DNA of 64,000 nt, taken from the NCBI GenBank assembly GCA_021432655.1, contig MU271426.1, positions 1 through 64,000 of the forward strand, given 5' to 3'. This DNA is from Atractiella rhizophila. Taxonomy: Eukaryota. Below, piece by piece: positions 32,116 through 64,000 of the stretch. The notes under the pieces were generated by a model. That model had not been told where the DNA came from. It worked only from the letters and a program-made list of their open reading frames with translations, and did no database searches. A program made the translations under genes and the position numbers. The number at the start of each line of letters is the position of its first letter. Position 1 is the first letter of the stretch.

Positions 32116-35100
32116 TTACTCTTGGATGATGCAATATACATCAGCCATTGATCTGCAGCAGTCTTCTTCACCTCCTCGGTCGCTAACTTCCATGTAGATT
32201 ACTTTCGCCTCCTCGAATGCTTCCAGAGCGTCCTCGTTCCGCCCACTTTGAAAATCGACCCTGCCAACGCTGAACAAGCAGTCGGCTTGACCGAGTCGAT
32301 CTCCCACATCCATGTAGAGCTCATTCGCCTCCTCGAACGCCATCAGCGCGTCCTCGTTCCGTCCGCATCGAAAGTCAATCTCCCCGATGTTGCGGACGCA
32401 GTGACCTTGACCGTCTCGAGATCCCACTTCCATATACATCATCTTCGCCTGCTCGAAATCCTTCAGAGCGTCCTCGTTCCGCCCACATTGAAAATCGACC
32501 CTCCCAACGCTGAACACGTAGTTGGCTTGACCGAGTCGATCTCCCACATCCATGTAGAGCTCATTCGCCTCCTCGAACGCCATCAGCGCGTCCTCGTTCC
32601 GTCCGCATCGAAAATAGTTGGCTTGACCGAGTCGATCTCCCACATCCATGTAGAGCTCATTCGCCTCCTCGAACGCCATCAGCGCGTCCTCGTTCCGTCC
32701 GCATCGAAAATCGAAATTCCCGATGTTGAAGACGCAGTTCGCTTGACCAAGTCGATCTCCCACTTCCACATAGAGCTCCTTCGCTTCCTTCAACGCCTTT
32801 AAAGCCTCCGCGTTCTTGCCACGGTCGAGAAAGCAGTAGCCAAGGAATTCTATCAGCGAACGCTTCAGTCTTAACCAATCGAACCGTTTGCGATCTGCAG
32901 AAAGTGGCATTCCAAGCATTTTATCCACAACACACATCGCCTGTTGAAAGAGTGAAGTTGAGAGCCTATGTTGCAGGCGTAGGAAGTGAAATATGTTCTC
33001 TAAGTGCTGAAGGATCGGTAAAGGATCTGGCAGGTTCAACATGCTCCAGAGAAGGACTTGTTCGAGGTTCGGATAGTGTTCACGGAAGAGAAGCAGCGCA
33101 TAATGATCCTTGTAGGTCTCGAATTGTTTGATGTTTGCCTCAGCTTTCCCCATAAGGTTTCTTCACAACGGGCAGAAGTGACAAAGGCACAGTCATCGAA
33201 AATGGCGGTTTTGAATGAATGACAAGATGGTTGAGGTATTCACGAATAGGAGCGAGCATACGGAGAGTGCCGTTGATGTCATTGGCAAATCCAATCTTTG
33301 AAATCAAAGCGATGACCTTGAAGATACCCTGAGATTCATGCGGGATGGAAATGAGTGCTGACAGATCGTCGTGGGATAGACTGTCAGGTACCCATGACAG
33401 CAATGCGAGCGCAAAGACAGCACGCTCCCCTTCTTTTTGAGGGCCGGAGAATCGAGCGAGAACGATATAGAAGTTTGGAGGGTGACTATCTCTTCACTAT
33501 CTTCATCCCACATAACATCTGTCTTTTTCTTTTCCCACTCGTCTACCAATTCTTCGAGTGTCATAATTGGATCCCCGTTGGCACGGAGAGCGCATAACTT
33601 GATTGAAAGAGCGTGGAAGTCTAACTGTTCCAGTAGCCGATCGACAAGCGGCAGCGAGAACTCGTCCTCTCTCTGATATGAGTCCTTGAAGAGTGCGTGC
33701 GCACCGTCGTTCGGCAACCCATCAACTGAGACCTTCACAAACTTCACAGGCTCGTTCCCCGTCACGCCCAAATACTCCACTTGATCTCCACGATGGACCA
33801 CGACGAGTACTGACCCGACTGAGTTGTTCGATAGAAGTGTTCGGAAGAAGTGTTGTTTTTTGTTTTCGTCAGCACGCAGAGGAGTTTCAAAGTTGTCCAA
33901 AACAAGAAGGCATTGTCGACTTCTGAAGTATTTGGCCATGACCTGTAGTGCCGGCTCGCTAGATTGAGGCAGCGCGAATACATCGTTGCAGATGTGGTTA
34001 GAAAGCTTGGCAAAGGTATCAAAGTTATCGCAGCGAACCCAGAAGCGGAGATCTTCTCCAGTGCCCCTCTTCGTATCTGTGAAGGACTGCTCGACCTCTG
34101 CGCAGTGCACGGTGTTGAGTGCACGGTGGATTTGCCGTTCCCAGCTCCACCCACAATCGCAACGTGGCGGCCGTTAAGGATAGCTTCTCTGACGCGTCGG
34201 ATCTCGTCTTCGCGGCCAAAGCAGGAGCCTGGAGGCGGTAACGGTAACCGTCGACGGACTGCAATCCGTTCGCTGCACACTACAAGGACCTCAACGTGGC
34301 ATCAACACAAGAGCTAAGAGTACATACCCTGCACGAGGGATTCAGCAGCATTACGCGCTTCGTCGCCCATTACTTCCATATACGCCCTCGTACGGCCCAC
34401 GACGTCCTTGGTTCGCTCCCACTCCTCCCACTTGACGCCTCCCATCGTATGGACTGAAAAGCGGTGGTAACGATGCCCTAGACTGTGATCCTGCATCCTC
34501 ATCTTCAACTGATCTGCTACGTGGGAACAATCTTCGATGATTGCCTTCACAGCAAGTTCAATCTCGCCTTTAGTACCACCACATTTAACAGCCGCAGCGA
34601 TTCCTGACCCCAGGGAGACGAGGCAGGCGACTTCGCTGCCTTGCCCCCAAATGCGCTTTGACTCCTCCATCGCTAGCGCTGCCGGGTTATTGTTTCCGAT
34701 GGCGACTAATTTCGCTTTGTCGATGACAATAGGAGGAAAGAATTGAGGAGCAGAGGAAGTCGCTCTGGCTGCTTCCCACACAGTACACGTAGCAGCAGAA
34801 CGACCTGCAGCACGGACGTGGTACGTCCGCATCTCTGTTGAAACAACTGCGTCTGATTCGTACTTTGAGACGACGAAAGTTCTCCATCTGTGTTCAATCG
34901 CGTCATCCTTCATGGTAAGTTGAGAGGACGATACAGGTGATGGAGCGTATCGTGCAATGATCTTGTGGAAGACGGCTTCGAGCCTCTCTGCAGAGTACGT
35001 GTAGCCGTCTTTCGAATGTGGAGCTTCTTCGGCAAAGACATTCTGCAGGATTTGCTCGTACGCGCAGATGCACTGTCTAACAGTCATTCCCAACCGTCCG

Positions 35101-35615
35101 AGCATGAGTGCGATCCATCCTCCTGTCGAAGTGCCACAGATGAGATCGAAAACATCGCATGGCAGGACTTCTTCTCCCTCTGGAACTGCGAGGATGTCTT
35201 CAACCTGGAGCATGATGACTTCGAGCATGTAAAGGGTGGAGAATGTACAGATGCCTCCGTTGTCGATGGCGAGGATTCGGAGTCCTTGTTCGTTCGTCTT
35301 CTTGAAATTCTCCGGGACTCTGAAGATTTTGATAGTTTGCGCGTGGGCTGAGACTCGGGACGGGAGGGGTGACGGAGTTGGGACTCTGGATGCAATGGGC
35401 GTTGCGGTCCGTGACAAGAGGGCGAAAGGCGGAGGAAAAATTGTATTGACGCGTAGGAATGGACTGGGTCGAGAATACAGCTGCAGCACAGAGACGTTTT
35501 GAGCTGCTGCGCGTTCTACCGATGGAATGTCTCGCGATTTAGCGCAGGATGAGTTGACGTCGTCCAAATCCGTGGGTTCTTCATGATCGTGATCGTTGGA
35601 GGAGGTAGTATCCAT
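32116..35615 (-). CDS. Fungal NLR-like protein: patatin-like domain + NB-ARC/STAND NTPase + TPR repeats (three apparent frameshifts)
   Basis: Patatin motifs LAIDNGG, GTSTGG, ARATSSAP. A 48-bp intron (34280-34327) joins it in frame to CFGRE..GGAGNGKST (Walker A) and LLVLDNFETP (Walker B). C-terminal 40-aa TPR units. Confidence 0.88.
32150..32850 (-). repeat. High-identity intragenic TPR repeats (120-bp unit, one 96-bp unit)
   Basis: GRNEDALMAFEEANELYMDVGDRLGQA occurs three times; 32519-32614 and 32615-32710 are an exact tandem pair. Confidence 0.95.
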
Positions 35616-36359
35616 CGTCTAGACAAAGTATCGGATGATAGATAGTATCGATGATAATTAGAAGAACACAGTGACAGCGTTGAGCGCGAGACAACACTAA
35701 AATGCAAGTCAGATTTCTGCGCTCTGGACTCGGATGCCGGGAGAAAGCAGGAAAACATGCAAAGGTGCACTTGAACGTGCGGTTTCATAGCGCGAAGAGA
35801 GGAGAAGACATGAGAAATGCCTCCCCAAGTTCGACGGCGCCGTTTTAGGAGGGTTAAGCCGATCCAAAACATCCCTGAAAACATCCGTATGTACGAATGT
35901 TAGACGATGCGATCGATGAGGATGAAGGCAAGTGATTCGTGATCCACAAAGCAAAGGCTAGGAGTATCAAGGATGGCGCACTCCATATCTTCCAGCGCTG
36001 AGGCAGTGAAGAAACTGCTCTCCTAAGGACGTGAAATGATCCCATGAAGTAATCAAGGTGAACTTGAAGATGGAACGATACGTAATTTGACGAGGACGAA
36101 GTAAAACAAAAACGTGAAGTCATTTCTTCCACTCGTCCCTCAAAATTTACAGGCTACACAACGATGTCAACGTTTAGCCTCAGCCAGCCTCAACGGCCGA
36201 TAAGACCAGTTTATAGATTTGATACTCACAAGGACTTTCAAGATCCTGCGAAAGCACCAATTTCAAGCAACAGGCGATCAAGGTCCAGTGCCTTAACAGC
36301 TGAATATCAGCTCTCAAAGTTATCTGAAGCTGCAGAGGAGAGCGATGTTGGTTGATTGG

Positions 36360-39914: not shown

Positions 39915-42900
39915 TCTTCCTTACCTCTAAAAGCCATCCGTTCTTGGCATGAGTCATAAAACGCACTTTTGAGCGTTCATACCTCCCTCAGCAGGCACAT
40001 TGAAACGAAATGAATTACACCATGTTACTGCATATGTTTGCGTCTTTCTGGAGCTGCAAGGAAATTTTATTTTGAAGTGGTGAGAAAAAGTGTTTTGCAG
40101 CGGACTCGAACCCTTTACAACCGTGTACTCTGCTTTCCCCGGCTCCACTGGCTTCCCTCCCCACTTGGCCCACTTGGCCGCTAAACACCATGCGCAGCTG
40201 CCCCGCAAAGCAACCGCAGCACACGGCGCCAAAACAAGGCCGCACGCTATTTCTTCAGCGCATGTTGGGATTTCTCAAGTCGGGCGCCAAAAAGTGTCAT
40301 TTGCCTACCTTAAGGGGAAGAAAGTGAGCACATGTGAGCTAGAATATACTGCCTTTAGTGCTTTCTGACAGCACTTTAGAATCATCATGCCCCACCCTAA
40401 GCAAAAAAATGGCGCAAACCAAGAGTTCATGCTCAGCAGCAACGACGAGAAGAGAGCCAGTCAGATACCCCTCAGGCTGCTCCACAACGCACAGAGAGAC
40501 GTCATGCAGGACTGCCCCAGCGTTTTCAGATTACACAACCTACCCCACCTCAGCACTTGACACGCCAAATTCGTGAGCAACAGCAGCAGGCTCAACCTCT
40601 GAGGGTACGACGACAACGTCGGCAGCCAGACCCTCAGCCTTTAGATGGAGACATCACTGAAGGATCCTCTGATGGAGAATTTGGGAACAATGATGTTCCT
40701 GACCCAAGGATGGTGCCACCAAGAGATGAAAGGCATGATCGGCATCCTTTCATCACATTTAACTACTCTTCGGGAACTGTGGAAGCCGTGCGGCTTTCTG
40801 GCTGGAGCGTAGTCTTCTGCTCAGAATGCAGTGCCTTCCGTTGGCTTGAGGAGCGAATAGTCAAGAGCTCTAAGCGTAATCCGAAATTTACGAACTGCTG
40901 CTCCCATGGAAAGATTGTTCTTCCTGCTTATGAAAATACTCCACCAGAGTTGTTTCAGCTGTTCACCAATCCAGATACGCATGAATCAAGACAGTTTCGT
41001 GAGAATATCCGCTCCTACAATAATGCTCTTTCCTTTACTTCTCTCAGAGTCAAGCGTCCACCTATCCCTGGGCATGGAGTTTACACTTTCCGGATTCAAG
41101 GGGAGCTTTGCCATCGCATCGGTGCTTTGCTTCCGGAATCTGATGGCGAAGAAAAGTTTGCACAGATATATATGCTGGATTCTGAAGAGCAGATTCGTTA
41201 AAGAATAGGGACCATTAGAGGGAACAAACTTAAGGAAGTGACATTGAGAAAGTTGCAAGACATGATGTGGCGAGTTAATCCATGGCCGGAAATCTATAAA
41301 ACTGCAAGGGAGCGTATGGCAGATGACCCAGCATTACAACTCCACATTCGAACTATTAATCCTACAGATCTCCATCCCGTCGATATAATAGGCCAACAGG
41401 TCATGGCATAGGAGAAATTGCAGTGCTTCTCATTGGAGAAGAATCAGGAGCCACCGCAGGTGTCACAAGAGATATTGTGGTCAAACTCCGACGGCCTGAT
41501 GGTCAGAACTTTTATGAAAAAGTCAGTGATCAAAATGCCAACTATCTCCCACTGCGATTTCCACTTTTATTTCCATATGGTGAGCAAGGTAGGCACACGT
41601 ACATTCCCCTCCGTCATGGTGATCTGCTTCAACGTGGTCCACGGGAAGAACATCGAAATAATGACGGACAAATAGTTGGAAACATGGGAGAACGAGTCCA
41701 TGTTACGCAGATGGACTATTACTCCTATCTTTTCACCCAAAGAAGAATACTTTCTCTCTCATTCACCATGGTGGTCGACTATTTCAAGAATTGGTTTACG
41801 ATGCTTACGCCCAAATAGAGAGTGGAAGATTGAAGTTTCTTCGGTTCAATCAAGATCTTCTCCGAACTGAATCCTATGCTGGACTTGGTGACGCCTTAGA
41901 AGATGGCCGAGATGCAGCAGATGTTGGGAAGCGGACCATTTTACCATCCACACATACTGGAAGCCCACGTCAAATGAATCAACAATTTCAGGATGCGATG
42001 GCGATTGTTGGAAACAGAGGTTCTCCCGCTATCTTTACAACATTCACCTGCAATCCTCGATGGCCCGAAATCACAGAAGCCCTGCTTCCTGGACAAACAG
42101 CTGCAGATAGGCCAGACTTGGTCTCTAGGGTTTTCAACGTGAAGGTGAAGGCCTATATGCAGGACATCAAAGATAACTCAATCTTTGGACGGACAGTTGG
42201 CTTTGTCTGGGTGATCGAATTTCAGAAACGTGGTCTGCCTCATGCTCACATCCTCATCATTCTCAATGCCGAAGACACCATCCGGGATGTTGAGGCTATC
42301 GACCGCATAGTATCTGCTGAATTGCCTGACAAGGACACCGATCCTGAGTTATTTGACATTGTCTGCAATCACATGCTCCATGGACCCTGCGGAGATATCA
42401 ACCCAGATGCTCCATGCATGATAGATGATCCTAAGAACCCTGGGAGAAAAATCTGTGGCAAAGGGTTTCCAAAGCCCTTTGCAGAAGAAACAGGCATCCT
42501 CCATCTTTACCTGAAGAAATCGATGACGGTCCCTCTGATGGACAACAGGAGGGAGCATTTGACAATACTGATCTGCCTGATCAAATGGTGGTAGCTCCTT
42601 GGGATGCAAGACGAGATTAGCATGGTTTTCTCACATTCAACTACTTACCAGATACAGTGGAGGCCATCAGACTTTCGGGCTCGAATGAATCCTTTTGCTC
42701 AGAATGTGGTGCCTTTTATTGGCTCGAAGAACGGATAGTAAGGAGCTCTAAGCGGAATCCAAAGTTTTGTCACTGTTGTTCTCTGTGAAAGTTTGTTCTT
42801 CCTGCTTAAGAAGAAATGTTCTTTCCTTTACTTCTCTTGGAGTCAAGTGGCCACCTATTCCTGGGCAAGGTGTTCACTCTTTCCAGATTCAATGGGAGCC

Positions 42901-43400: not shown

Positions 43401-44259
43401 GGAAATAAAGGAAGTGGTTGCCCTGCTGTCGACGAGCGCCGATGTGGCATGTCAGGAATGTGGATGATGAAACGTAGTTCTGAGTTTTGTTTTTGAGCTG
43501 ACAAGGGATACAGTTGTTGAACATAAGTGGGCTTTGTCATATATTTTTGTAACATCTACACATCTTTGTCTCCAAGAGGGAAAATGTAACTTTGGAAATG
43601 GGGAGTCATGTTCAGGAGAAGGGAAATCTGTGCAAAGCGGCACTTTGTTGGAAGTGATTTTACTTGACGAAAATGGATTGTGAGTCGGCGATGGAGACAC
43701 TTCTTTCACACATTGCCGTCTCAAAAATCCTCATCCAGATCTGTCAGCTCGTTTTCAGCAACTGGTTGGCGATTTGTGCAGATTGTCGTTCTTGTAGTAC
43801 AAGACGAGTGTCGAAATATTCTCCTTGTGCACAACGATATTGCTCTTTGCTCACGGACATCTTGCATTCCTTCTCTCTGCATCCGATTTTTTTGGCACCT
43901 TCGACAATGAGGCGTCTGAACTCAGTTGCGTCCACCTCCATATAATTGGGGTCATTGGCTTCATGAGGCTGCAAAGTGGTAGTCAGCAACAAAGCGGTGT
44001 CAGGTTTGTATTATGCAAATTGGCCTCCATTCATCCGTTTGTGTTCTTCGTGACTCTGGTGAGACTCATTTGATTCCCTTCAGCTTCCTCTTCGTTCCAT
44101 GCTTTCTGATTATTCCATATTTCTAAAATGACCAGTCATTCCCAACAGTGCAGATTAACCCTTTATACCCAAGGTTCAACACACATATCCTCAATTAAGA
44201 ATCTCAATCACTTCCACTTGTGGTCTAGTCAATGACAATAGGCATTGGAGCATCCTGAG

Positions 44260-44720
44260 GCATGCGAAAAGCCACTCCAAGCCTCCTTTCATCTTTCCAT
44301 CATGTCTCCACCATGCTCGTAAGAGCATCAACTTGCGAACAGTTTCTGCTTTCAGTGAAGCACGACGCAAGGAGATGACATCCCGTCCAGAGGAAAATAC
44401 GCGTTCGACGGCAACGGAGGAAGCTACCAAGATGATCAGTGATCCGAGTACAACATTAACTAAGTTGTGAGCACATACCTGGAATGCTCACCACGTCCTT
44501 GGCCAAAGGAGCCAACGCAGCAAATTTTCCACTCTGGGCATGCTTTTTCCACCACAGCTCACATCAACCTGAGCATCCTTAACACAGTCTTCCGAATCCA
44601 CCTCTTCCTTAGCACTCAAGTAATTCCAGTACCGTTCCAGAGGATGAAACTGTGAAGTATTGCTGATCTTTCGAGCGTTGGGGAAGAGACGTGCGTTGAG
44701 TTTCTCCACAGCGGTCATGG
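44260..44720 (-). pseudogene. hAT transposase C-terminal dimerisation domain fragment
   Basis: ASSVAVERVFSSGRDVISLRRASLKAETVRKLMLLRAW, preceded by an intron and an LERY...WW-type exon. Confidence 0.88.
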
Positions 44721-45250: not shown

Positions 45251-46281
45251 GAGATACTATGGGTTACGGGTATGTCCCTCTCTCACAGAAATCAATGATA
45301 TAGGCAACCTCCTATCTTCTACTTGCCGCAATACCAATCGAGGATCCCAAGAAATGCTTTGACTTATTCTTCCTTTAGATCTAACTTCGACATTGGACAG
45401 CTCTTTGTGTTTGTTGTTACGCACCCCCAATCTGACAAAGTTGTCTGTCCTGAAGTCAAAGCTTGGTATGATTCTTCTTCAACCAATGTCGAACACCTCT
45501 TATGCAAAGTGAAGCGTTCGAAAACAATGGGATGACCATTGACAAACTGAAAAAGGACCAACACGCCATCCACAACTTATCGCCCACCTATTCTGCAGGA
45601 ACGAAACACTGACTTCATAAAGAACATAATCGTCAGCATTCGCTGGTTCCGAGCTGATTCTAAACAACTCATTTACAGCAATAACCACTAGTGCTTTTCT
45701 TTTATGTTTTGCTTTCAAACATACAACAGCTGCTTTTGTGGATGAATCAGAGCCGCGATTCTATACGTCGCTGTTGCGCTCTCTAATATTGTCTTTCAAC
45801 TTTCTGTCTATGCAAACCGAATTCAAGCAGTTCAATGAAAATAACACTAATTTCCCACTGTTCGATCGTTTGCAGCCTTAAACATACTGTAAGTGCTAGC
45901 TCGATATTCAAAGTCGACATAACAGACAGACTCGATATGGAAATGTGCATAAACGCCCAGGATGGACTTTAACCCGTAATTGAGCTAGCTCCTGCGGCGA
46001 TAGATATCCCATGCATATTACTGAGAGCACAACGATATGACAAAACAAATGCAGCTCATTAATGTTCAATATTCAATTTCCACCACTCCTATATGCAGGT
46101 CAGGTACGGGCGCACCTGCGCGTTTACGATTCAGAGCGATCCCAGGATTGGATCAGCTTGCTTGGAGGAAAGAATTTGTGCCAACCAGCTTTATCGCCGA
46201 CGAACTCCGACCCCTTGGTTCTCCTCAATCATGGCATCTATTTGTTCTTCCATTGAATAGTTTGTTTGAATTCTTGCCCGT

Positions 46282-48925
46282 GTGGGTGTGGGTGCGGGTG
46301 CCACCGCGGAACTGGGAGGAATAAAAGGCCTCCACCTTATCAATTGTCACCTCCAGATTTCCAACGGCATTTTGAACATCCTGCAGATGTTGGGTTCAAC
46401 CAAACATGATGTCTCCCAACCAAAATTATTGTCTTTGCTTCTCTGCGTGGTTCTAGCTTTGGAAGGGCTAGCACAGGAAGAGGGGCACAAAAAAAGTGAT
46501 CCAACTTGGTTTATCCCTTTGGTTCTGTGTGCCGCCTTCTTTCTCGGTCTTCTTGCTGCTTTGCTCAGGTGGGTCATTGTTCTATGGTCTGATCAGTTTT
46601 TGATGAAAGATGGGCGAAGGCATATATGGAAGGATTCCTTTGGTGATTGTTCGCACATTATTGGCTTCATTCTCTTACTTCTATTCTCACCTTTCATCAA
46701 GGTGCTCGTCATGGCAATCATGGTCGCAGAATTCGTTCTCCTGCTTCGGCATATCATTCTCTGCATTCCGGACGATCGGCGGCTCAGCTTGAGCTCTTGG
46801 GCCAACCGCAGTGACAGAGCCGAAGAACGCTTTCACAATGCTGAACATGTCATGAAAAAGTTGATTCGGGATCCGTCGTTTGACCTGAATGCGGCTGAGA
46901 AGTTGCGTTTTAAAGCGTGAGTGTTCCCTCGATCATTCCCACATCACATTGAATCGGTGAAAAAGTAAAGTCGAATGGCATCTTCAGACCTGTAACCAGT
47001 CGCACATAACTTTCTTCCGCTGGGTTCGGCAAGCTGTCAATAAACAATTGAACCACCTGTCAAGAGACATATTGCGTTCATTGCCTTCCGAATCGTTCCT
47101 TCAATTATGGGAACAAAGGACACATTCAGCCCTTTTGGCCTTCAGAAAGCAGCTGGAATCCTTGACTATTCAGTGGCCGACGTCATTATTGCAAGCGACG
47201 TTGGCCGTCCAAGGACGTTCGAGGAATGGCTCGCGACGGACGAGATGCAGTCAGTATATAGTGGTTTTGAACTGGAAAATCTGGCTGAACGGGAACATAC
47301 CAGTCATTGAAGGATGTAATCAAAGTTGCTCTTTTCTCTGATGCGCTTCCGCAAGGCATTGGCAACGCGGTCAAGGGCTCGATTCTCAGATTGTATCGGA
47401 AGGAGATGGGAGAAGATGTGGCGGAAGGCAGCCACTTATATGACCTGCCGTACCTGTCGCGTGGTTGGAGCAAGCTGACGGCTGGCCAACATGACACGCT
47501 TTTGATACGATGTGCAACCCTATGTCGTGCACTTATATTGCTTGCCCAGTATTGAATTAATGGGAAAGTAGTTGACATTGATGCTCCGACCAGCACCTCT
47601 GCGTACTACACCCTACTAGCTTCTCCCATCCTAAACCATGAGCAATCCATTCCACCAGAAGCAGCAGAGTTACGTCAAGAGAGAATTGTTCGATTGTTTG
47701 GGCATGACGCCGTGATGGGAGAATGGAAGAACGATATTACAAACCTGAAGGATCAGGTCTCCCTCTCTATATAAGAAACTCTTGCTCACAGAGAGCGCAG
47801 CTGCTTATGATTTGCAAGAAGAAGATCTTGCAATCAATTGCTGTCGTCGACAGATTGCAGCGGTCGCTCACAGCAGGGAAACAAGGAGAAGAAGGTCATT
47901 TGTTGCCTTTTAACAGTGCTGGAAGTACTGACAGATGATGAATAGATGTCAAAAATATACTGGGTCTCGCTAAGCTCATACCGGATCCTCGAGGATGTGA
48001 GGCAGCGGCCAACGTTGTCGCAAAATGGGTCTCAACACAGGCGACTAAAGGCAGCCGAATGGAGAGTGTATGGGACGACGGTCCGGTGTATCACGCCGCA
48101 GACGGAGCTCAAGAGGAATTCACTCCAACATTATTTGTCCAGGAGACAATCGTTGTCTTGAATGCTGTCTTGTCGCATGTGAGGACGTTGGGGGAAGGAC
48201 CATTCTTTGATCTGGTTACGTATCAGGTGTCTTTTTTTTTTTGAAGTGAATGTTTCCATCGCTGATGCCTGACGCCGCTCAGTCTTCGACAGCTCTCGTA
48301 AACGCAACAGAACAGGCGGGGAAGCTGCTTTCATCATACCTTGACAAAGCCTTGAGGAAACGAGAAGATCCATTGCGCACACGTTCACTCGATGACAGCG
48401 TCAAAGATGTGGTTGGGTCTTCCAGGTTATCTACAGTACAACGTATAAGCTAAAGTCCATCCAGTTGCAAATATATCCTTTCCTGCAACCGAAAGACATC
48501 TTTCTTCAACTGCATGGTCAACGTCTTGCTAGAAGGATCGTACAATTCGAATGTTTCCATGAGGAGAAGGAAAGTGACATCGCTAGGCTTGTTTCGGAGG
48601 GAGAATCACAGTACGGACGGAAGATCCCCAGGATTCTCGCAGGTACCTGCCTTCTCATATTACCAGCGCTTAAAGCTGAATTTTTTGGTAGATATAGACT
48701 TTTCAAACTCATTGGTTAATCGATTTATTCATGAGAGAAGGAGAAGGGCCAGCGTCAGTTTTTCCCTTTCAGGCGTGCCGGAGGCAAGTTTACGATTTCA
48801 CGCCTTTTTATTTTCTGCTTCTGCGCTAGCTTTCTCTCCATCCAAGCTCGATGGCACCAGAATCCCGGAAGAGCTCAAATCTTTACATGATGAATTCAAT
48901 GAGTATTTCACACAGGAGCAACGGT
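46282..48925 (+). CDS. Divergent cullin-like protein with hydrophobic N-terminal extension, 3'-truncated at a hAT relic
   Basis: Cullin-homology motifs KLLSSYLDKALRK, FLQPKDIFLQLHGQRLARRIV, EEKESDIARL..GESQYGRKIPRILADIDFSNSL and IPEELKSLHDEFNEYF. Upstream exons resemble cullin repeats; several GT-AG introns. Start codon uncertain (possibly 46387). Confidence 0.7.
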
Positions 48926-48939
48926 AGGTTTAAGTCCAT

Positions 48940-50380
48940 CGCTTAATATGAAGGCTCAAGATGTTATAATCGACTTCCAAGAGCTTGAGGGTGCACATAC
49001 AGGAGAAGCCATTGCAGAGGCACTTATGAAGACGATTGACGACTATGGTATTGACAGGCAGGTATGTCGTCAACTGCCTTTTAACACATTATCTTAACTT
49101 ACCTTTGTAAACTCTTGCAGCTAGGATGCATCACCGGAGATGGGGCCTCAAATAATACGACTGCTGTCGAAGCAATTGAATCACAAATGCTTGATCGTGG
49201 GATCCCCTTCAATGCAAAAGAACGCCGCATGTTCTGTACTCCGCACGTCATTCATCTTGCTGCCATGGAGCTTCTGAAAGTCATAGGTGCGTTCCCTGAG
49301 AAGGAGAAAGAGGATGAGGCAAAGGGATCAGTCGCATGGCAAGAGGAAGTCACTAGGAAAATCAAGTTGGGGGGGGGAGAGCTACCGTTTGAAGACAATA
49401 TGGATATTGATGTTCAGGTTGGAATGGTGAAGGAAACCCTGGCTAAGGTATGTCTTTCTTCTCTTATTATATTGCTAATTACTGTCAACAGCTTCGTTAT
49501 ATTGTCAAACATCTTCGTTTGACACCTCAAAGGCGGAGGGGATGGTTCAAGGTACTTGAGGAAACACTTGACGGACTTGGAACTCTGTCAAATGAGCAGC
49601 TCAAGGTTCTTATCGTTGATTGTCGTACTCGTTGGTCGTCAACACATGACATGCTCACGCTCTGCCTTCGATATCGGGAGGCAATAGAGAAGTACGTTGA
49701 TCAATGTGGGCTAGAGCGGCAAAAGTTGTGGAATGCGGAGTGGGAAGTGGGTTGAAGCGGTCACGAAATGGCTCGAATCTTTCCGCAATGCGACTATCGA
49801 GATGTCGACAACATCCTCTCCATCCCTCTCATCAACGATAGGAGTGTATTACGGACTGATGGGGGAACTGAAGGAGTTCATTGCGACAATGCCTGGGACC
49901 CTTCCGAAGCCATTTCAAGATGGTTTGGTGAAGGCCCATCTCAAGTTGAGCACCTACAACGCTGTCTTGGATGATTGACCTTACCCCCTGTGGTCTGTTT
50001 GTGAGTAACTTGTGTTCCTTAGACATCTTTAACCTCATGCTGGTTAGTTCTTTACCCACGACTCAATCATCACTTCCTTTCAAATGCTATTTTTGATGAG
50101 CACAGGGAAACGATTGCAGCTAGCAAGGCCGCCTTGATCGAACATTTCAAGACCAACTACCTTCGTAAAAGCCAACCACCATCTTCCCACACCTCTTCTC
50201 CTTCTGAATCCTTCAAGCACGTTCTAACGTCTGCAGCAACAGCACTCACATATTCAGCAAAGCTTATGCAGAAGGCAAATCAACAAGCAAAGGTGTTTCA
50301 CAAGGATGAGGATCAGCAACCGAACCTTTGGTTCAGTCTTCCTCTATTGGACTGGATGGAGGATCCGTTGGAGATTTATC
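48940..50380 (+). pseudogene. hAT transposase core fragment
   Basis: IDFQELEGAHTGEAIA, ITGDGASNN, FCTPHVIHLAA (CxxH), DCRTRWSSTHDML, W..VEAVTKWLESFRNAT. Both ends missing. Confidence 0.9.
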
Positions 50381-50959
50381 GTGTGCGGTCGAAAACAGAT
50401 TTGAACGTGATTGAGAACGGGTGGAACCAAGAATGCGCAGAGGGTGAAGGAAGAATCGATGCTGAGGTGCTGAATGATTATGGACCGATTTTCTAAACAT
50501 TGTGCGATTAAGGATGAGTACTCGATGAGTACTAGACGGGGAACTCTAAATTTAGGATTCGGGTCATTGATGTGTCCATTGATTTAGTCCAATTCGTCTA
50601 AGATTCAAGAATTATTCTACCAAAAATCTGAGTGCGTGAACGATTTGTCCAACAATGCATTTCTTAGTGATACCTCTACGCTGCGTACTCGATTTGTGTT
50701 ATCTGTCCAGATGCCGCTTTATGGAGGGATCACACTGGATTATCTGAACATGGTCAAATGGTCGTATTGGGGGTTAGCTTGGGGTGACAGAATCGTGTGC
50801 CTCCTCCTTTCGCCACTTGCACACTTGCGCGTTTAGTTTCCTGCGAGCACTTTCTGGAACTGTGGCCAACCTTTTGCCACAGGGATCTAGCTGTTATAAA
50901 AGCTTGTAAAGCTGCAAGTGCAAGACTTATACTCATTGTTATCTCGCACTTTGCAGCAC

Positions 50960-51500
50960 TTGCACATTTGTCATGGGGTACTGTGCTCAAAGACAGCTCA
51001 GAGCTCCTCCGTATCTTTGCCATCAATCACTCTCACCAAGAAAAGCGCAAGAAAAGCAAAAAACGGGGAGAGGAACAGCTCTGGATTGTGACTGCTGATT
51101 TAGAGACACTTTATCCCAACATCAAGACAGAAGATAGTATCAGGAGCATACATGAGATGTTGCAATCAGATGCCAAACCGGAATGGTCCAAGAGGGAATT
51201 AGAGGGAATTCATTTGTTTATATGCTATGATTCATGCTGCAACAGACCTACATCCAGTTTCAAGGCAGGTGCTACCAGCAGAAGAATGGCACTGCCATGG
51301 GGACTCCAGTCACGGTGCAGTATGTGAATCTGTACCTATACCTGCTTGAGAAGGACCTTGTTGAACGCTGGCTCCTCTACCAACAGACTCATACTCTTCA
51401 AGAGATATATTGATGACATCGTTGCCCTCATCTTTGGAACATGGGACCAAACAGAAGCCTTTGTCAATGAGTACAACTTTTTAAACCCACGATACGTCTC
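50960..51500 (+). pseudogene. Penelope-like element reverse transcriptase fragment
   Basis: LKDSSELL, VTADLETLYPNI, YQQKNGTAMGT..YVNLYL and FKRYIDDI, a combination typical of PLE RTs. Confidence 0.75.
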
Positions 51501-51769
51501 ATACATCCATCTCAGGAGTTTACTTTAAATGGGTGCCCTATCTCCATGAAGAGCTAGGAAGAAGCAGGTAGAGGAGAAGGAGGTAGTCGGGGATGAGAGG
51601 AGGCAGAGAATGGTTTCCCGGTGCTTGTAACGTTACTAAATCACAATGGAGAGCTTCATGACCTATAGGTCGCCAAAAGCTCGTTAATGGATTTCATCAT
51701 CATCATCATCATCATGTCTCCATTCTGTTCAGCTCTTCCTCACCTTGTTTCCCCGCATACACCAGTATT

Positions 51770-53139: not shown

Positions 53140-53740
53140 AAGGCTCAAAAAGCCATTGCAATGTTCCTTCTTACATTGAGTCCACCAACAATGCAAAGCA
53201 TCAGCTTTTGGATGGCTTCCGCCTTGAGGGAAGCATGACGAAAAGAAATAACGTCTCTCTGTAGAAAATACATGTTTAACTGTGACCGCAGAGGCTGCAG
53301 TAAGATCTGCTTCAGAGAGCACATAGAATAGAACAATGCCACTAACCCGGAATGCAGAGGATGCCACTAGCTAGCGAGCTCAAAGCTTTATAACATCCTC
53401 CTTTTGCCTGCTCATTCCACCATGCCATCAGGTCGGTATCATCGTCCCCTTCTGGTACTCCATCCTCTGAGTCTTGGAGCTTGTGCAAGTGTTTCCAAAG
53501 CTGATTGAGTATGTGATCCATGGTTGTGGTGACAATTCGAGCCCTTCTCCAGATACATTTACCAAGCTTCTGCTTTGTGACTGATGCTTTGGAGGATACA
53601 TTTTGCAGCTCCGTGTAAGATGCTACAGTGGTGGTTGAGGTGAGGTCACTGTATTCTTTGTCGAACTTCTTCTTCAAAAGATCATTCACATTCTCCAACA
53701 GATAATATTCAAAACTATGATGAGGATCTTCAAAAGTTGC
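53140..53740 (-). pseudogene. hAT transposase C-terminal relic
   Basis: DLMAWWNEQ..YKALSSLASGILCIP, then after an intron ASAVTVKHVFS..VISFRHASLKAEAIQKLM. Confidence 0.8.
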
Positions 53741-55419
53741 TAACCCATGCCAGGGATTAAAGAAACCAATGAATTAATTATACTCGTAGGTACAGGACCC
53801 ATACTCACGAGTACTGATCATTTGAAAGTTGATTTGTGACTTGTTGTGGATGAGCAGCACAAGTACCCTTGACTCATGAGTATTACTCACAGGTACCTGT
53901 AGATTACCCACTCTCTTCCTGAGTCATCAAAAATGAAGACTGTAGTGTGGATAATTTAATATAAAGTCAAATATACCACTACATTCACTTTAATATGGCT
54001 TGTTATAGTTAAAACCCTTAAAATGACTACCTTCATGGCTCAAATATATGTATTTACCATAAAACTTCACCTTAGGTACACAAGCAACTCAGTTAGACAA
54101 GGAACAGATGGAAGGCAAGTTGAAAAGAGTCCTGCAGCATTATGAGCAGGACAGCAGGCTAAGAAAGGCACTTACTCTTAACATTCGAAACTTTTACAGT
54201 GTAAAGGCCAGAAACTTGAAGGTGATTACCCATGAGCGAAAAAAGTGCGCACCAGTAGGAGACAGATCAATTTCAACGGCTACATTGGCGAGCACTGCCA
54301 AAGCAGTGGCTGCTTTGGATTCTACTGTCATTTTGAAGTGAGGCTACGAAACTGGTTAATCTAGGCAATGTGGATAAAGCACATACGTTCCCTGTTGACT
54401 GCACTTTGGATGGTTGACTACAGAGGGAAGTTTGGGTGGTAATCTGATGAAGTGCTCCCTAGCAGCCGTAATCAATACCAATCAACCAACAAAGTAAGAG
54501 ATAAACATGGGGCCAGTTTCTTGCAGTTGTTTACGGCAATTTTATGTTTCTCTCTACCGGCTCCAATCAAGAAAGGTTTATGTTGAGGATGGAACTAAGC
54601 TCACCGGTGTATGCAAGTTTGAAATAATTTCTACTTCAGGCTGTCGAATAACAAACCATGTTCATTCTCAGCAAAGAACATTCAAAAGGAACACACACCA
54701 AAGTGTTTGTCCTGTCTGCTTGATATCTCGCTCCTTTTTTCTCCCTCTTCCTCCGAGCATCATTCCGATTTGCAATATAGTTTTGAATGAGCTTCTTTGC
54801 CTTCCAGTTATTATAACATAGACCAATTCTGGAACCTGAGCTGATTAGAGATTGACAACAGAGCTGGATGAGATGCGGATGCCCCTTAGGAAACTGAAAA
54901 GACAGTCTTATTTGGAAAAGTGTCTACTGGGATTTTCGCGTTCTTTAGTTGCAGTTCCTGATTCTTTGCCTCCAAGTCCACAATTCAACTTCTTTGATAC
55001 ATTCTGCCCTGGTCCGCCTCAGCAATACGAGCCTTGAAATTGTCTTGATTTTCAAGGAGCGAACTAAGGAGGAGTTGAAGGTTGTTGGAGGAGAGATTTG
55101 GGGTTGGTGGAGCTTTGTGTGCAAGGGCATTGAATGAGAGAGCGGTTGAACAGGTTCCTTGGCCATAAGGGCCAGGAGATGATCCTAAAAGTGCTGACAA
55201 GTCGCTGTTAGACCCTGTGGTGTGTGGTGTTGAGTCTGAAGACATCTTGAGAAGGTCAGTGGCTGTTTTGAAAAGTAAACAAGAGTATTTTGTATTGTAG
55301 CTGCACATGATTCTACAAGGCGCCTGCTAGTCATTTATCTGCAAATAAATCAGAAGCAATCTCTTCTTTACCGATAGCTTTATGCCACAGCAGAATTGAC
55401 ATCAAAATACGAGCCAAAG

Positions 55420-62134: not shown

Positions 62135-64000
62135 GATGGATCGATAACGGTTTGCATATGAGTGACTTGTCGCTCAATAACAGGATCGAAATACTCTTCA
62201 CGGACGTGAGGGAAGCTGAGGAAGTGCACGGAGCGTGGATCGTTTCCAAACTCTAGGGCTTGAATGTCCTCCTGTGATGTGGGTGGGAAAGGTCGGAGGC
62301 CTTGGTAGATGTTTTCGGTGAGGAATCGAGTGGAGGAAGACTACATTTCGGTCAGGATTGCATAATCACAGCTAGAATCGCTTACCATTGTTCTACAAAG
62401 GGTTAAAAGACCTTCGAAGAGAGTATTCAGAGCGGCAACAGTATCAGCCAGTCCGTTCGCGCCTTTCAGTCGTAAGCGGTTGAACCGGATATACCAGTTG
62501 GTGAGTTCGTCAATTAGACCTAATAACCGAGGTAGTATGGTGTATAATCGGTAAGCTATCACAATTTTTAGCAAGTTATAATATTTGTCATACTCAACAT
62601 TACCTTCCATCTCCGTCTTGACCAACTGGATAAGGCTTTGGCATCGGACTAAAATCCAGCGATCCATGACATTCTCCAACGTCTTTGCGTGGACATTGAA
62701 CGTGAATTCCACTGGCGAAGTTTCTTGAGAAGCTCGACTTGTCCAAGGAAAAAGCGGAACGAGTTAAGCCACGGCAACAAAGCTCGGCTGATTGACTTCC
62801 TTCACCCCTGAGTCCTTGAAGCGAAGGTTCTCTCCTCGAACGACAGGGGAATTAATGAGGTATAATCTAGCAGGCGTCCACTGGCCATACAAGGCACGCA
62901 CCGTAAAGCATCAGCGCCATATCGTGCAAGGATCTCATTCGGACCAGGGTAATTCTTTAGACTCTTGGACATTTTACGACCGTCCCTGCACAAAGTTAAA
63001 CGGCATAGCCATACGACCCCAAAAAAAAAGCGTACTCTGCAAGGACGATGCAAGTCACAATCAAATTCTTCCATGGGGCGGTATCGAAGAGAAGGGTTGC
63101 AAGGACTAGAAGGGTGTAGAACCAACCGCTACGACAACTTTAAATCGATGCGCAAGAAGTTTTAGTTCGGGGCATACCGCGTCTGGTCAAGACCTTCAGC
63201 AATGAAGTCAGCGGGAAACCGTTCATTAAAGCCTTCCTTGTTCTCGAAGGGGTAGTGGATCTGAGCGTAAGGCATGCTAGAATGATGTGAGAGTCGTGAA
63301 TAGGTAAGAAACAGCGAAGACGTACCTGCCAGACTCAACCCAGCAATCAAATACCTCCCTCTACACGCGGAAGTTGGCCTTTACCCTTTTTCGAAGGGAT
63401 AGTAATCTTGTCAACTGTTTCTCGATGAAGGTCAGTGAGTGTGCCGCAACCAGCTAGCTCGTTCAATTCCTCTAGCGATCCAACACAGACAATCTAATCA
63501 TTTCATCAGTAATCTGTAGATTTCACGGGGGAGACGAACCTCTTCCAAGTCCTCACTAGCGCAGAGCGGCAATGGCGTCCCCCAATACCTATTCCTGCTG
63601 ATGTTCCAATCCCTAGCGATCTTGAGCCAATTCGCAAATCTCGAATCGGAGACTGATTGTGGAACCCATCTTGTTTCGGCATGGTTGTTGACAAGCTGTT
63701 CAGTCGAAATTGACGGCACGGATGAACCAAGCCGGCACAGAGCAGTAGAGAAGAGGAGTGCCAGAACGCCAACAGAAAGGGTAAGAGTGAGTGAGTGTGC
63801 CTTGATGCACAAGACAATTCATAGCTTTAATGGCTCGCGTGATGCCTTTATCAGCATCCTGCATGTAGCGTGAGAACCATTCTTGCTGTCATAGAAAAGT
63901 GACATATCGTACCTTCACATACTGCCCCTCAAAACTGCGGAATGTCAGACGTGTACTTGTCCGTCTCGTTGATGGGACAAGGTGGCATTTCATCTTCTTT
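62135..64000 (-). pseudogene. ILS1: Cytosolic isoleucyl-tRNA synthetase copy, degenerate and 3'-truncated; runs off the window end
   Basis: [71 protein letters not shown]. Introns retained, frameshifts present, homology stops after RQVTHMQTVID. Confidence 0.9.

Follow-up and report, generated by a model that had tools for sequence, protein, structure and literature searches.

A decayed Cullin-1-derived gene copy with a candidate membrane-spanning front end in Atractiella rhizophila

By the usual description, cullins are soluble scaffolds, and it is only their adaptors that bring them to membranes. RING ligases that do reside in membranes, Hrd1 and Doa10 for example, have no relation to cullins and consist of a single-chain RING enzyme. 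Fungi have kept three cullin genes, to which occasional lineage- or species-specific duplicates are added (Marin 2009), and lineage-specific cullins have been described from trypanosomes (Sci Rep 2025, PMC12816148); the accessible parts of these two accounts mention no cullin with a membrane segment. A literature search, which left most subscription journals outside its reach, found no membrane-anchored or transmembrane cullin. Likewise, judging from the listed records, papers on atypical cullins held nothing on membrane cullins, and judging from titles and the openings of abstracts, those listed for the fungus Atractiella rhizophila held nothing on its genes.

The DNA analyzed here, hereafter the window, is a stretch of 64,000 nt from contig MU271426.1 of A. 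rhizophila. We propose, at a probability of roughly 0.7, that its segment 46387-48924 on the forward (+) strand is a decayed copy from a gene family that is small and restricted to one lineage and that joins a Cullin-1-derived scaffold to a membrane-spanning front end (Table 1). The closest described system is Cullin-1/Cdc53, the scaffold of the SCF ligase, from which the members would differ by about 160 extra N-terminal residues that include a signal-like segment and membrane-span candidates. Four loci were found, all in the records of a single species, the matching proteins being assigned to A. rhizophila by their source. One is the window copy itself, for which a public gene model exists (P0001), and the others are represented by P0002, P0003, and P0004. 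The family resembles the fungal duplicates and the trypanosome clade named Cul-kappa by its authors, which are likewise extra, fast-evolving paralogs found beside a conserved set.

Table 1. Coordinates of the features at and next to the cullin-like locus (positions are those of the window)
Feature	Position	Strand	Description
Exon 1	46387..46568	+	ATG, signal-peptide-like core, then a short polar segment and the first of the strong candidates for a membrane span; same layout in P0002 and P0003
Intron 1	46569..46619	+	51 nt, GTGGGT..AAG; joint 46566>46618 (cut +2) in X3, X4, X6
Exon 2	46620..46916	+	Candidate helical hairpin, conserved ..IILCIP.DRR.. motif, ~50-residue polar linker ending ..KLRFK
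Intron 2	46917..46965	+	49 nt, GTGAGT..AAG; joint 46916>46966 in X3 (side 107 letters) and X4 (side 24)
Exon 3	46966..47253	+	Start of cullin-like body, frameshifted; 3' end 47249 (donor GTCAGT, X3) or 47253 (donor GTATAT, frame-keeping)
Frameshift	47132..47133	+	4 T in window versus 5 T in relatives; extra T behind 47132 in X3, X8
Exon 4	47304..47526	+	Cullin-like body, N-terminal domain; contig joints; 51% identity to P0004
Exon 5	47572..47756	+	After intron 47527-47571 (45 nt, GT..AG); joint 47526>47572 in X3, X4, X6; 61% identity to P0004
Exon 6	47801..47894	+	After intron 47757-47800 (44 nt, GT..AG); X3 loose ends at 47756 and 47798, each continuing into the exon of the other; 67% identity to P0004
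Exon 7	47946..48226	+	After intron 47895-47945 (51 nt); joint 47892>47944 (cut +2) in X3; 54% identity to P0004
Exon 8	48283..48411	+	..SSYLDKALRK.. motif; after intron 48227-48282 (56 nt); joint in X3, X6; 63% identity to P0004
Exon 9	48465..48642	+	..KDIF..RLARR.. core; after intron 48412-48464 (53 nt); joint in X3, X4, X6
Exon 10	48692..48924	+	Ends ..IPEEL..HDEFNEYFTQEQR; last cullin sequence in window; after intron 48643-48691 (49 nt); 45% identity to P0004
Breakpoint zone	48925..48957	.	TAG stop directly after 48924; X3 loose ends 48924 (behind) and 48958 (before)
Transposase-like ORF pieces	48958..50496	+	5' part missing; transcribed and spliced in organism B; X3 contigs, loose ends 48958 and 49061

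The evidence for splicing comes from assembled contigs of four sequencing runs of relatives (X3, X4, X6, and X8), a kind of data from which rarer isoforms drop out; X3 derives from an organism that we call organism B, and neither stretches without cover nor depth differences along the gene were used. Ten introns of 44 to 56 nt are absent from these contigs, nine of them by listed joints with GT..AG (or GT..CA) ends and one, that before exon 6, by two matching loose ends, and the resulting chain of exons fits up to 48924. In X8, the acceptor of exon 10 lies 6 nt further on. The junction that matters most for the architecture is intron 2, which links the membrane exon (exons 1 and 2 of Table 1) to the cullin-like body. 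An earlier note, made from the letters alone, had spliced its donor at 46917 to 46966, and precisely this joint occurs in the spliced contigs of two related organisms; it is also used by the public model P0001, and across the equivalent point P0004 reads ..KLRFK/RKVERYLQ... Three details had escaped that first reading. The membrane part, taken as a single exon 46282-46920, contains intron 1, which is in frame and free of stops, so that the unspliced ORF also reads through. The cullin exons carry a 1-base frameshift at 47132/47133, and the splice seen at 47249/47304 does not keep the frame. A few further joints in X3, whose sides are short or whose depth is low, were set aside (46686>47097, 47415>47849, 47894>48796, and 47890>47946).

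The membrane exon lies in a stop-to-stop ORF of 46270-46920, whose sole usable ATG is at 46387. Kyte-Doolittle hydropathy over 19-residue windows of the spliced exon recovers the N-terminal hydrophobic segments where they had been placed by the earlier note: a weak peak at residues 11-29 (1.64), a strong one at residues 42-60 (2.71), and a hydrophobic stretch of 35-40 residues at about 69-110 (peak 2.63), after which no window exceeds 1.32. In the alignment, a pattern like that of signal peptides is apparent by eye, with small residues at -3/-1 followed by acidic residues. From its N terminus onward, the front end would comprise a segment resembling a signal peptide, a single membrane span, a hydrophobic hairpin, and finally a basic linker in the cytosol, and its insertion into a membrane is predicted from the hydropathy together with the positive-inside pattern. 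A HMMER search of 1.84e9 representative proteins returned three matches to this exon at E<=0.001, all from A. rhizophila, among them P0002 (E=6.7e-15, 49% identity) and P0003 (E=2.7e-9, 47% identity), whose hydropathy peaks match those of the window exon; in alignment A1, identity across the loci is 39-41%. No known family for it was found in Pfam, PDB, or the Atlas, in the last of which the best score of 0.77 carries no meaning. A word-based protein search with the membrane ORF matched 0 of 7996 scored candidates, which is weak evidence, and metagenome scans with this ORF and with P0004 did not find relatives.

One could ask whether this exon is translated at all. If it were an untranslated leader, with the true start at the Met of ..HVMKKL.., the members would be soluble, N-terminally ordinary cullin paralogs. 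The gene model of P0004 does begin exactly at this conserved Met, downstream of the membrane spans, the 46387 ATG is replaced by ACG in organism B (T>C at 46388), and the exon matches no known family in the three collections named above. We nevertheless regard such a leader as improbable, since an open frame and protein similarity extend far upstream of the Met in three loci, at the E values just given, with the signal-like and hydrophobic segments at matching positions. Moreover, both a 6-nt insertion in X3 and the 51-nt intron 1 keep the frame. The open frame and the hydropathy layout kept in three loci indicate that the membrane exon is coding.

The body that follows is of cullin ancestry and highly diverged. 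Within the window, its signals in profile searches are faint: Pfam Cullin matched 2 of the 14 pieces scanned, exon 9 at profile positions 389-445 (E=5.6e-4, 19.2 bits) and exon 8 at positions 343-389 (E=0.16, 11.1 bits), both below the cut-off of 33.2 bits but collinear with the profile. Among the PDB phmmer matches of exon 48465-48641 at E<=10, 13 of 14 are cullins (best E=0.038). These matches, together with a collinear identity of 45-67% between the window exons and P0004 (49% and 53% for the two frame-pieces of exon 3), bear out the cullin-homology motifs that had been noticed in the later exons; the cullin-homology region with its LRK / KDxF..LAxRL core is present, and the LRK / KDxF..LAxR / ..EL..F..Y.. 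motifs occur in the same order as in Cullin-1/Cdc53. The intact-looking paralog P0004 has 705 aa. It passes both Pfam cullin models (Cullin, E=7.2e-44, 151 bits; Cullin_Nedd8, E=5.8e-15), all 46 of its 46 PDB matches are cullins, and the best of them aligns it to residues 404-776 of human CUL1 (E=1e-36) with the neddylated lysine in place, ..VRVMK.. being aligned with ..VRIMK... Among the cullins, P0004 is closest to Cullin-1.

The N-terminal end of the cullin part is a different matter. Exons 3, 4, and 7 of the window gave no cullin matches in Pfam or PDB, and this includes the exons at 46966-47526, in which cullin repeat 1 had been read. Searches of PDB with phmmer returned no cullin for exon 10 (1 unrelated match), exon 4 (3 unrelated), exon 7 (0 matches), or P0001 (3 unrelated), and a word-based protein search with exon 47942-48226 matched 0 of 106 candidates, again weak evidence. 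P0004 is matched by Pfam Cullin from profile position 170 only; the first ~170 positions, corresponding to the adaptor-binding repeat, are unmatched in it, a probable difference from Cullin-1/Cdc53. The PDB profile search with P0004 did not reach the N-terminal domain, and an Atlas structure search with its N-terminal part gave nothing (TM <= 0.34). Among the Atlas feature matches of P0004 residues 1-348, 28 of 30 are Cullin clusters (top score 0.93), which we take as a lead only. Judging from the PDB alignment, the stretch before the LRK motif would reach the length of three repeats only with exon 3 included.

How the membrane and cullin parts are joined in a protein depends on the border between exons 3 and 4. 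The only joint listed for X3 at this point is 47249>47307 with TCG between, that is, donor 47250, and with this splice the membrane frame meets a stop two codons into exon 4. A second donor, 47254, keeps the frame and is the one assumed in P0001 (47253/47304). The X3 joint fits the frame of an ATG at 47226, which reads M-A-R-D-G-R-D-A and continues into exon 4 with donor 47250. It thereby favors an alternative under which the locus encodes two proteins, a membrane protein of ~260 residues (the membrane exon plus the next exon) and a cullin-like protein with its own start, for example, at ATG 47226; they would share a transcript or overlap only, and the lineage would have no membrane-anchored cullin. 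The start of the public models points in the same direction, since in both P0001 and P0004 it lies downstream of the membrane spans. We consider this arrangement unlikely. P0004 reads without interruption out of the end of the membrane exon and on across the counterparts of exons 3 and 4, and the joint at donor 47250 comes from one contig of one run, in a type of assembly that loses rarer isoforms. As a rule, further, an ORF lying downstream of one of ~260 codons would not be translated. In exon 3, two X3 changes are listed behind the frameshift. Read in the membrane-linked frame, they are a synonymous change and an I>V replacement, and in the frame of ATG 47226 each of them alters a residue, though two changes are too few to weigh.

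Returning to a family with both parts in one chain, we find its elements distributed unevenly among the paralogs. P0002 combines the membrane part with Cullin_Nedd8 (E=2.7e-9, 37.4 bits; cut-off, 36.9), and cullins make up all 30 of its 30 PDB matches, but about 450 residues of the cullin middle are missing. P0004 opens with the final 21 residues of the membrane exon, which run on in frame into the exon that follows. P0003 has the membrane exon without a cullin. At two loci besides that of the window, the membrane exon (P0002) or its tail (P0004) accompanies cullin parts. No intact full-length member was seen: the membrane part is missing from the P0004 model and the cullin from P0003, P0002 is without the cullin middle, and the window copy is broken. 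In organism B, the one relative with contigs across the junction 47249/47304, the splice seen puts the membrane and cullin frames out of register. One continuous membrane-cullin polypeptide is therefore something that we infer for the family, each member seen being incomplete or broken. Of the original proposal of a membrane-tethered, diverged cullin, the diverged body and the presence of membrane and cullin exons in one spliced transcript of close relatives stand; the single fused chain gains no support from the splice seen in organism B, which is out of frame.

The window copy is a relic, as seen from its frameshift, its truncation, and its relaxed constraint. At the frameshift site, P0004 is unbroken, reading WEQRTRQTLSGLQKAVG, and P0001 skips the site by means of a 35-nt "intron" (47096-47130). 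Similarity to P0004 ends at 48924; P0004 residues 517-705 have no counterpart anywhere in the 64,000-nt window, and the ..GRKL.. continuation of the cullin was not found there either. A contig of X3, by comparison, extends 663 nt past 48924, starting G-R-K-L-T-H-L-L-H-L, like P0004. What is absent from the window copy is the RING-binding domain and the winged helix with the neddylated lysine (PF10557), both present in P0004 and P0002, so that it differs from Cullin-1/Cdc53 in being without the RING- and Nedd8-binding half. Against a relative's transcripts, dN/dS is about 0.73, based on 38 listed substitutions (11 synonymous and 27 nonsynonymous over 481 and 1610 sites), with 2 more falling outside this set and changes near contig ends left out. 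Both marks of a pseudogene are found: lesions that disable the copy when it is compared with intact relatives, and a relaxation of constraint.

These lesions also bear on the suggestion that the copy is a working paralog or "decoy." For it to act as a truncated, RING-less, membrane-tethered decoy, the frameshift would have to be an assembly error in the T run. A homopolymer length difference (4 T versus 5 T) is indeed a common type of error, and the exons from 47304 to 48924 are all open. Yet, the 35-nt pseudo-intron of P0001 at this very site implies the same 4-T run in the annotated assembly, the frame ends in TAG right where the copy breaks off and a new 3' exon is not apparent, and dN/dS is about 0.73. 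With the frame being read through by P0004 and by the transcripts of two relatives, we see very little chance that such a decoy operates, and the suggestion is set aside. Most likely, the window copy makes no working protein; at most, its product would be a membrane protein to which a short stub of cullin is attached.

The earlier note had also placed the loss of the Rbx1/Nedd8 part at a junction with a hAT transposon. The loss itself is confirmed, the C-terminal half being absent from 48924 onward, but the hAT label finds no support in Pfam, PDB, or tblastx. A hAT affinity of the ORF pieces downstream would be a matter of motif resemblance only; the pieces of 48903-50496 gave no Pfam family and no PDB match, and tblastx detected no similarity between the downstream ORF and the PF05699 fragments of the window (44194-44487 and 53345-53773). 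Neither a hAT transposase core nor the C-terminal dimerization domain (PF05699) was found from 48925 onward. At the junction, GTAGGT at 48924-48929 resembles a donor site for splicing, and the transposase-like exon downstream has its acceptor in the AG at 48956-57. The surroundings hold many transposon fragments, and 4 kb upstream, the same strand carries a Helitron Rep domain. Capture of the gene by a Helitron was considered, and supporting evidence for it was not found; a blastn self-comparison detected no repeats within 45-54 kb.

For the intact members of the family, the following picture might apply. The front end would be inserted in an ER-type membrane with the cullin in the cytosol, an orientation that fits the basic residues on both flanks of the hairpin. 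A RING protein would dock on the C-terminal domain, neddylation would take place on the lysine kept in ..VRVMK.., and the resulting complex would act as a cullin-RING ligase anchored in a membrane. Hrd1 and Doa10 offer a possible functional analogy only, that of a membrane-held platform with a cytosolic catalytic side; here, the membrane part would instead be fused to a cullin scaffold. In its fullest form, which we put forward tentatively and at somewhat less than even odds, intact Atractiella members would be true integral-membrane cullins, with a signal peptide, three passes, and a neddylatable Cullin-1-derived scaffold in one polypeptide and a reinvented adaptor end.

The value of the window copy is mainly that of a lead exposing this family rather than that of a working gene. 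The family comprises at least four loci in a single fungus associated with roots, and several of these are in decay amid fragments of transposons; it offers an example of how a domain fusion is born and dies. A cullin that carries a membrane anchor of its own, if true, would represent a new way to fix a multisubunit ubiquitin ligase at a membrane.

At 46387-48924 (+) lies a copy, both frameshifted and truncated, of a gene from a Cullin-1-derived family whose N-terminal module is of membrane type. It lies in eukaryotic, intron-rich DNA, where the + strand stop-to-stop frame 46270-46920 holds a sole ATG at 46387. Within the first 160 residues of the spliced front end, hydropathy over 19 residues peaks at 1.64 in a signal-like core (best 11-mer 3.15), at 2.71 in a strong hydrophobic span (residues 42-60) and at 2.63 in a hydrophobic stretch of 35-40 residues (about 69-110), and a polar linker comes last; past this front end, no hydropathy window of the spliced model exceeds 1.32. 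These peaks bear out the earlier note's description of a hydrophobic N-terminal exon with a signal-like stretch. Since basic residues flank the hairpin on both sides and small residues occupy -3/-1 behind the first core, the sequence suggests that a signal is cleaved off and that one span and a hairpin follow, with the C-terminus in the cytosol. Organism B has 6 extra nt at 46658, within the exon 2 hydrophobic stretch: TATTGG, which is duplicated locally and leaves the frame intact.

A HMMER search with the membrane ORF over 1.84 billion representatives recovered only three proteins at E<=0.001, all hypothetical proteins of Atractiella rhizophila by source name; Pfam, PDB and Atlas offered no family for this front end. 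P0001 (298 aa; contig of 67,060 bp) corresponds to the window locus itself, as its public model. P0002 (331 aa, E=6.7e-15) and P0003 (166 aa, E=2.7e-9) both come from a second contig, 95,033 bp long. The window locus, P0002 and P0003 have the signal-like core, span and hairpin in the same order, along with the motif ..IILC(I/N)P..RR.. and the linker ..EHVMKK..DP...L...KLRFK. C-terminal to its membrane part, P0002 matches Cullin_Nedd8 (E=2.7e-9, 37.4 bits vs a cut-off of 36.9), and its PDB matches are all cullins (30/30). The first residue of P0001 is M where the window codon at 46699-46701 is AAG (Lys), X3 and X4 having ATG there (A>T at 46700), and its remaining residues match the window exactly; P0001 is probably a 5'-incomplete model.

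Eight public sequencing runs, none recorded as RNA, share part of the stretch, and we compared four of them (X3 from organism B, X4 and X6 from C, X8 from E) as contigs only, 85-99% alike to the window and blind to levels, starts and rarer isoforms. Short GT..AG segments missing from these contigs define a set of introns (see table), the ends of which were rechecked on the window sequence. Among them is the junction that the earlier note had predicted between the hydrophobic exon and the first cullin exon: exactly that segment is absent from X3 and X4. In close relatives, then, a single spliced RNA carries the hydrophobic exon together with the cullin exons.

Introns and mobile-element features in and around the cullin-derived locus
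Feature	Position	Strand	Evidence
Intron, GT..AG	46569-46619 (51 nt)	+	missing from X3, X4, X6 contigs
Intron, GT..AG	46917-46965 (49 nt)	+	missing from X3, X4 contigs
Intron	47250-47303	+	missing from X3 contig
Intron	47527-47571	+	missing from X3, X4, X6 contigs
Tenth intron	47757-47800	+	two X3 loose ends
Intron	47895-47945	+	missing from X3 contig
Intron	48227-48282	+	missing from X3, X6 contigs
Intron	48412-48464	+	missing from X3, X4, X6 contigs
Intron	48643-48691	+	missing from X3, X4; X8 acceptor 6 nt further on
Helitron_like_N (Rep) domain	41665-42591	+	E=4.6e-58; same strand as the cullin relic, which lies about 4 kb downstream
hAT dimerisation domain fragment	44194-44487	-	Pfam E=1.8e-7
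hAT dimerisation domain fragment	53345-53773	-	Pfam E=3.3e-5

A Pfam scan of 14 ORF pieces of 46270-50493 gave two sub-threshold Cullin matches, collinear along the profile: 48250-48450 (profile 343-389, E=0.16) and 48396-48716 (profile 389-445, E=5.6e-4, 19.2 bits vs a cut-off of 33.2). Against the PDB, 13 of the 14 matches of exon 48465-48641 at E<=10 were cullins, aligned at the KDVF..LAKRL core (top match Cul3, E=0.038); other exons, searched singly, gave no cullin match. With the cullin part of P0002 as the query, one longer protein, P0004, emerged among 779 candidates, on the same 95-kb contig as P0002 and P0003. Its 705 residues match Pfam Cullin (E=7.2e-44, profile 170-602) and Cullin_Nedd8 (E=5.8e-15); all 46 PDB matches are cullins, headed by CUL1 (1e-36, residues 349-705), with the neddylation site ..VRIMK.. 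of CUL1 aligned to ..VRVMK... The first ~170 Pfam Cullin profile positions find no match in P0004, and the PDB profile search also falls short of them; for residues 1-348, an Atlas feature search returned 28 Cullin clusters out of 30 (top score 0.93), as a lead only. On these results, the cullin repeat 1 that the earlier note read in exon 3 is a putative one. The window is collinear with P0004 from 46852 to 48924, its exons being 45-67% identical, and P0001 matches P0004 at 46% identity over 257 residues (E=3e-60). The P0004 model opens with the membrane exon's final 21 residues, which read in frame into the following exon. At three loci (P0002, P0004 and the window locus), then, cullin exons directly follow the membrane exon or its tail.

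The window copy itself has decayed. X3 and X8 carry one extra T behind 47132, and P0004 reads on as ..WEQRTRQTLSGLQKAVG.. where the window shifts frame; P0001 bypasses the site by a 35-nt pseudo-intron (47096-47130), which implies the same lesion in the annotated assembly. Homology to P0004 stops at 48924, directly followed by TAG. The X3 contig extends 663 nt further, starting G-R-K-L-T-H-L-L-H-L as in P0004, a continuation not found in the 64-kb window with up to 3 mismatches or up to 7 edits. P0004 residues 517-705 have no match there either, in keeping with the C-terminal loss claimed previously. An incomplete list of 38 substitutions relative to relatives (11 synonymous, 27 non-synonymous; 481 and 1610 sites) gives a dN/dS of ~0.73. 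Given the frameshift, the end of homology and this ratio, we regard the window copy as a relic, judged from its sequence.

A less likely alternative is that the membrane protein and the cullin-like protein are made separately, not as one chain. It draws on the exon 3/4 border, where 47249 is followed directly by 47304 in a single X3 contig, one mismatch aside (donor GTCAGT at 47250): the membrane-linked frame then hits TGA two codons into exon 4, and it is an ATG at 47226 that reads on into the cullin frame. The frame is kept only by the donor GTATAT at 47254, assumed by P0001. Organism B, in which the gene is untruncated, has ACG in place of the 46387 start codon, and the X3 joint seen gives no single membrane-cullin frame. 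P0004 reads continuously across the equivalent region. Mainly because of the broken frame at the X3 joint, our confidence in the reading as a whole is moderate.

The breakpoint of the cullin copy falls within 48925-48957, and GTAGGT at 48924 may be a donor left over from the cullin intron that came next. A transposase-like ORF follows from 48958, its start being an exon boundary in X3 transcripts; Pfam and PDB searches with it failed to confirm the hAT label that the downstream DNA had been given, and over 48.9-50.5 kb it is not similar to either of the hAT fragments near 44.2 and 53.3 kb. X3 loose ends (boundary 48957/48958, intron 49062-49120) indicate that this gene is transcribed and spliced in organism B. 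No Helitron helicase part occurs in ORFs >=40 aa up to 46.4 kb; capture by a Helitron is a conceivable route for the spread of the cullin family. ORF pieces at 50900-51530 (+) bear reverse-transcriptase-like motifs read by eye (..AMG.., ..YIDDI..), with no Pfam match at E<=0.01. At 32119-35618 (-), long ORFs encode a domain of patatin-like phospholipase type (E=5e-12) and then TPR repeats (TPR_12, E=5e-27), an arrangement that resembles an NLR-type gene of fungi, patatin in front and TPR behind. Class I aminoacyl-tRNA synthetase exons at 62344-63818 (-) (tRNA-synt_1, E=2.6e-14 and 4.7e-9; Anticodon_1, E=6e-7) appear to be an ordinary housekeeping gene bordering the transposon-rich stretch.

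Fungi are described as keeping three cullins plus occasional lineage-specific duplicates (Marin 2009, PMC2785787), and lineage-specific cullins are described from trypanosomes in a 2025 survey (PMC12816148), as far as the consulted parts of both sources go. Term searches of both papers showed no cullin with a membrane segment, nor did the literature searched, most subscription journals lying outside its scope, yield a membrane-anchored or transmembrane cullin, which is no proof of novelty. The earlier observation is confirmed, and the reading of a membrane-linked cullin paralog is partly supported: it fits a family of Cullin-1-derived members with a membrane-type front, of which the window copy is a frameshifted and truncated one. 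The point of interest is the putative architecture of the family.
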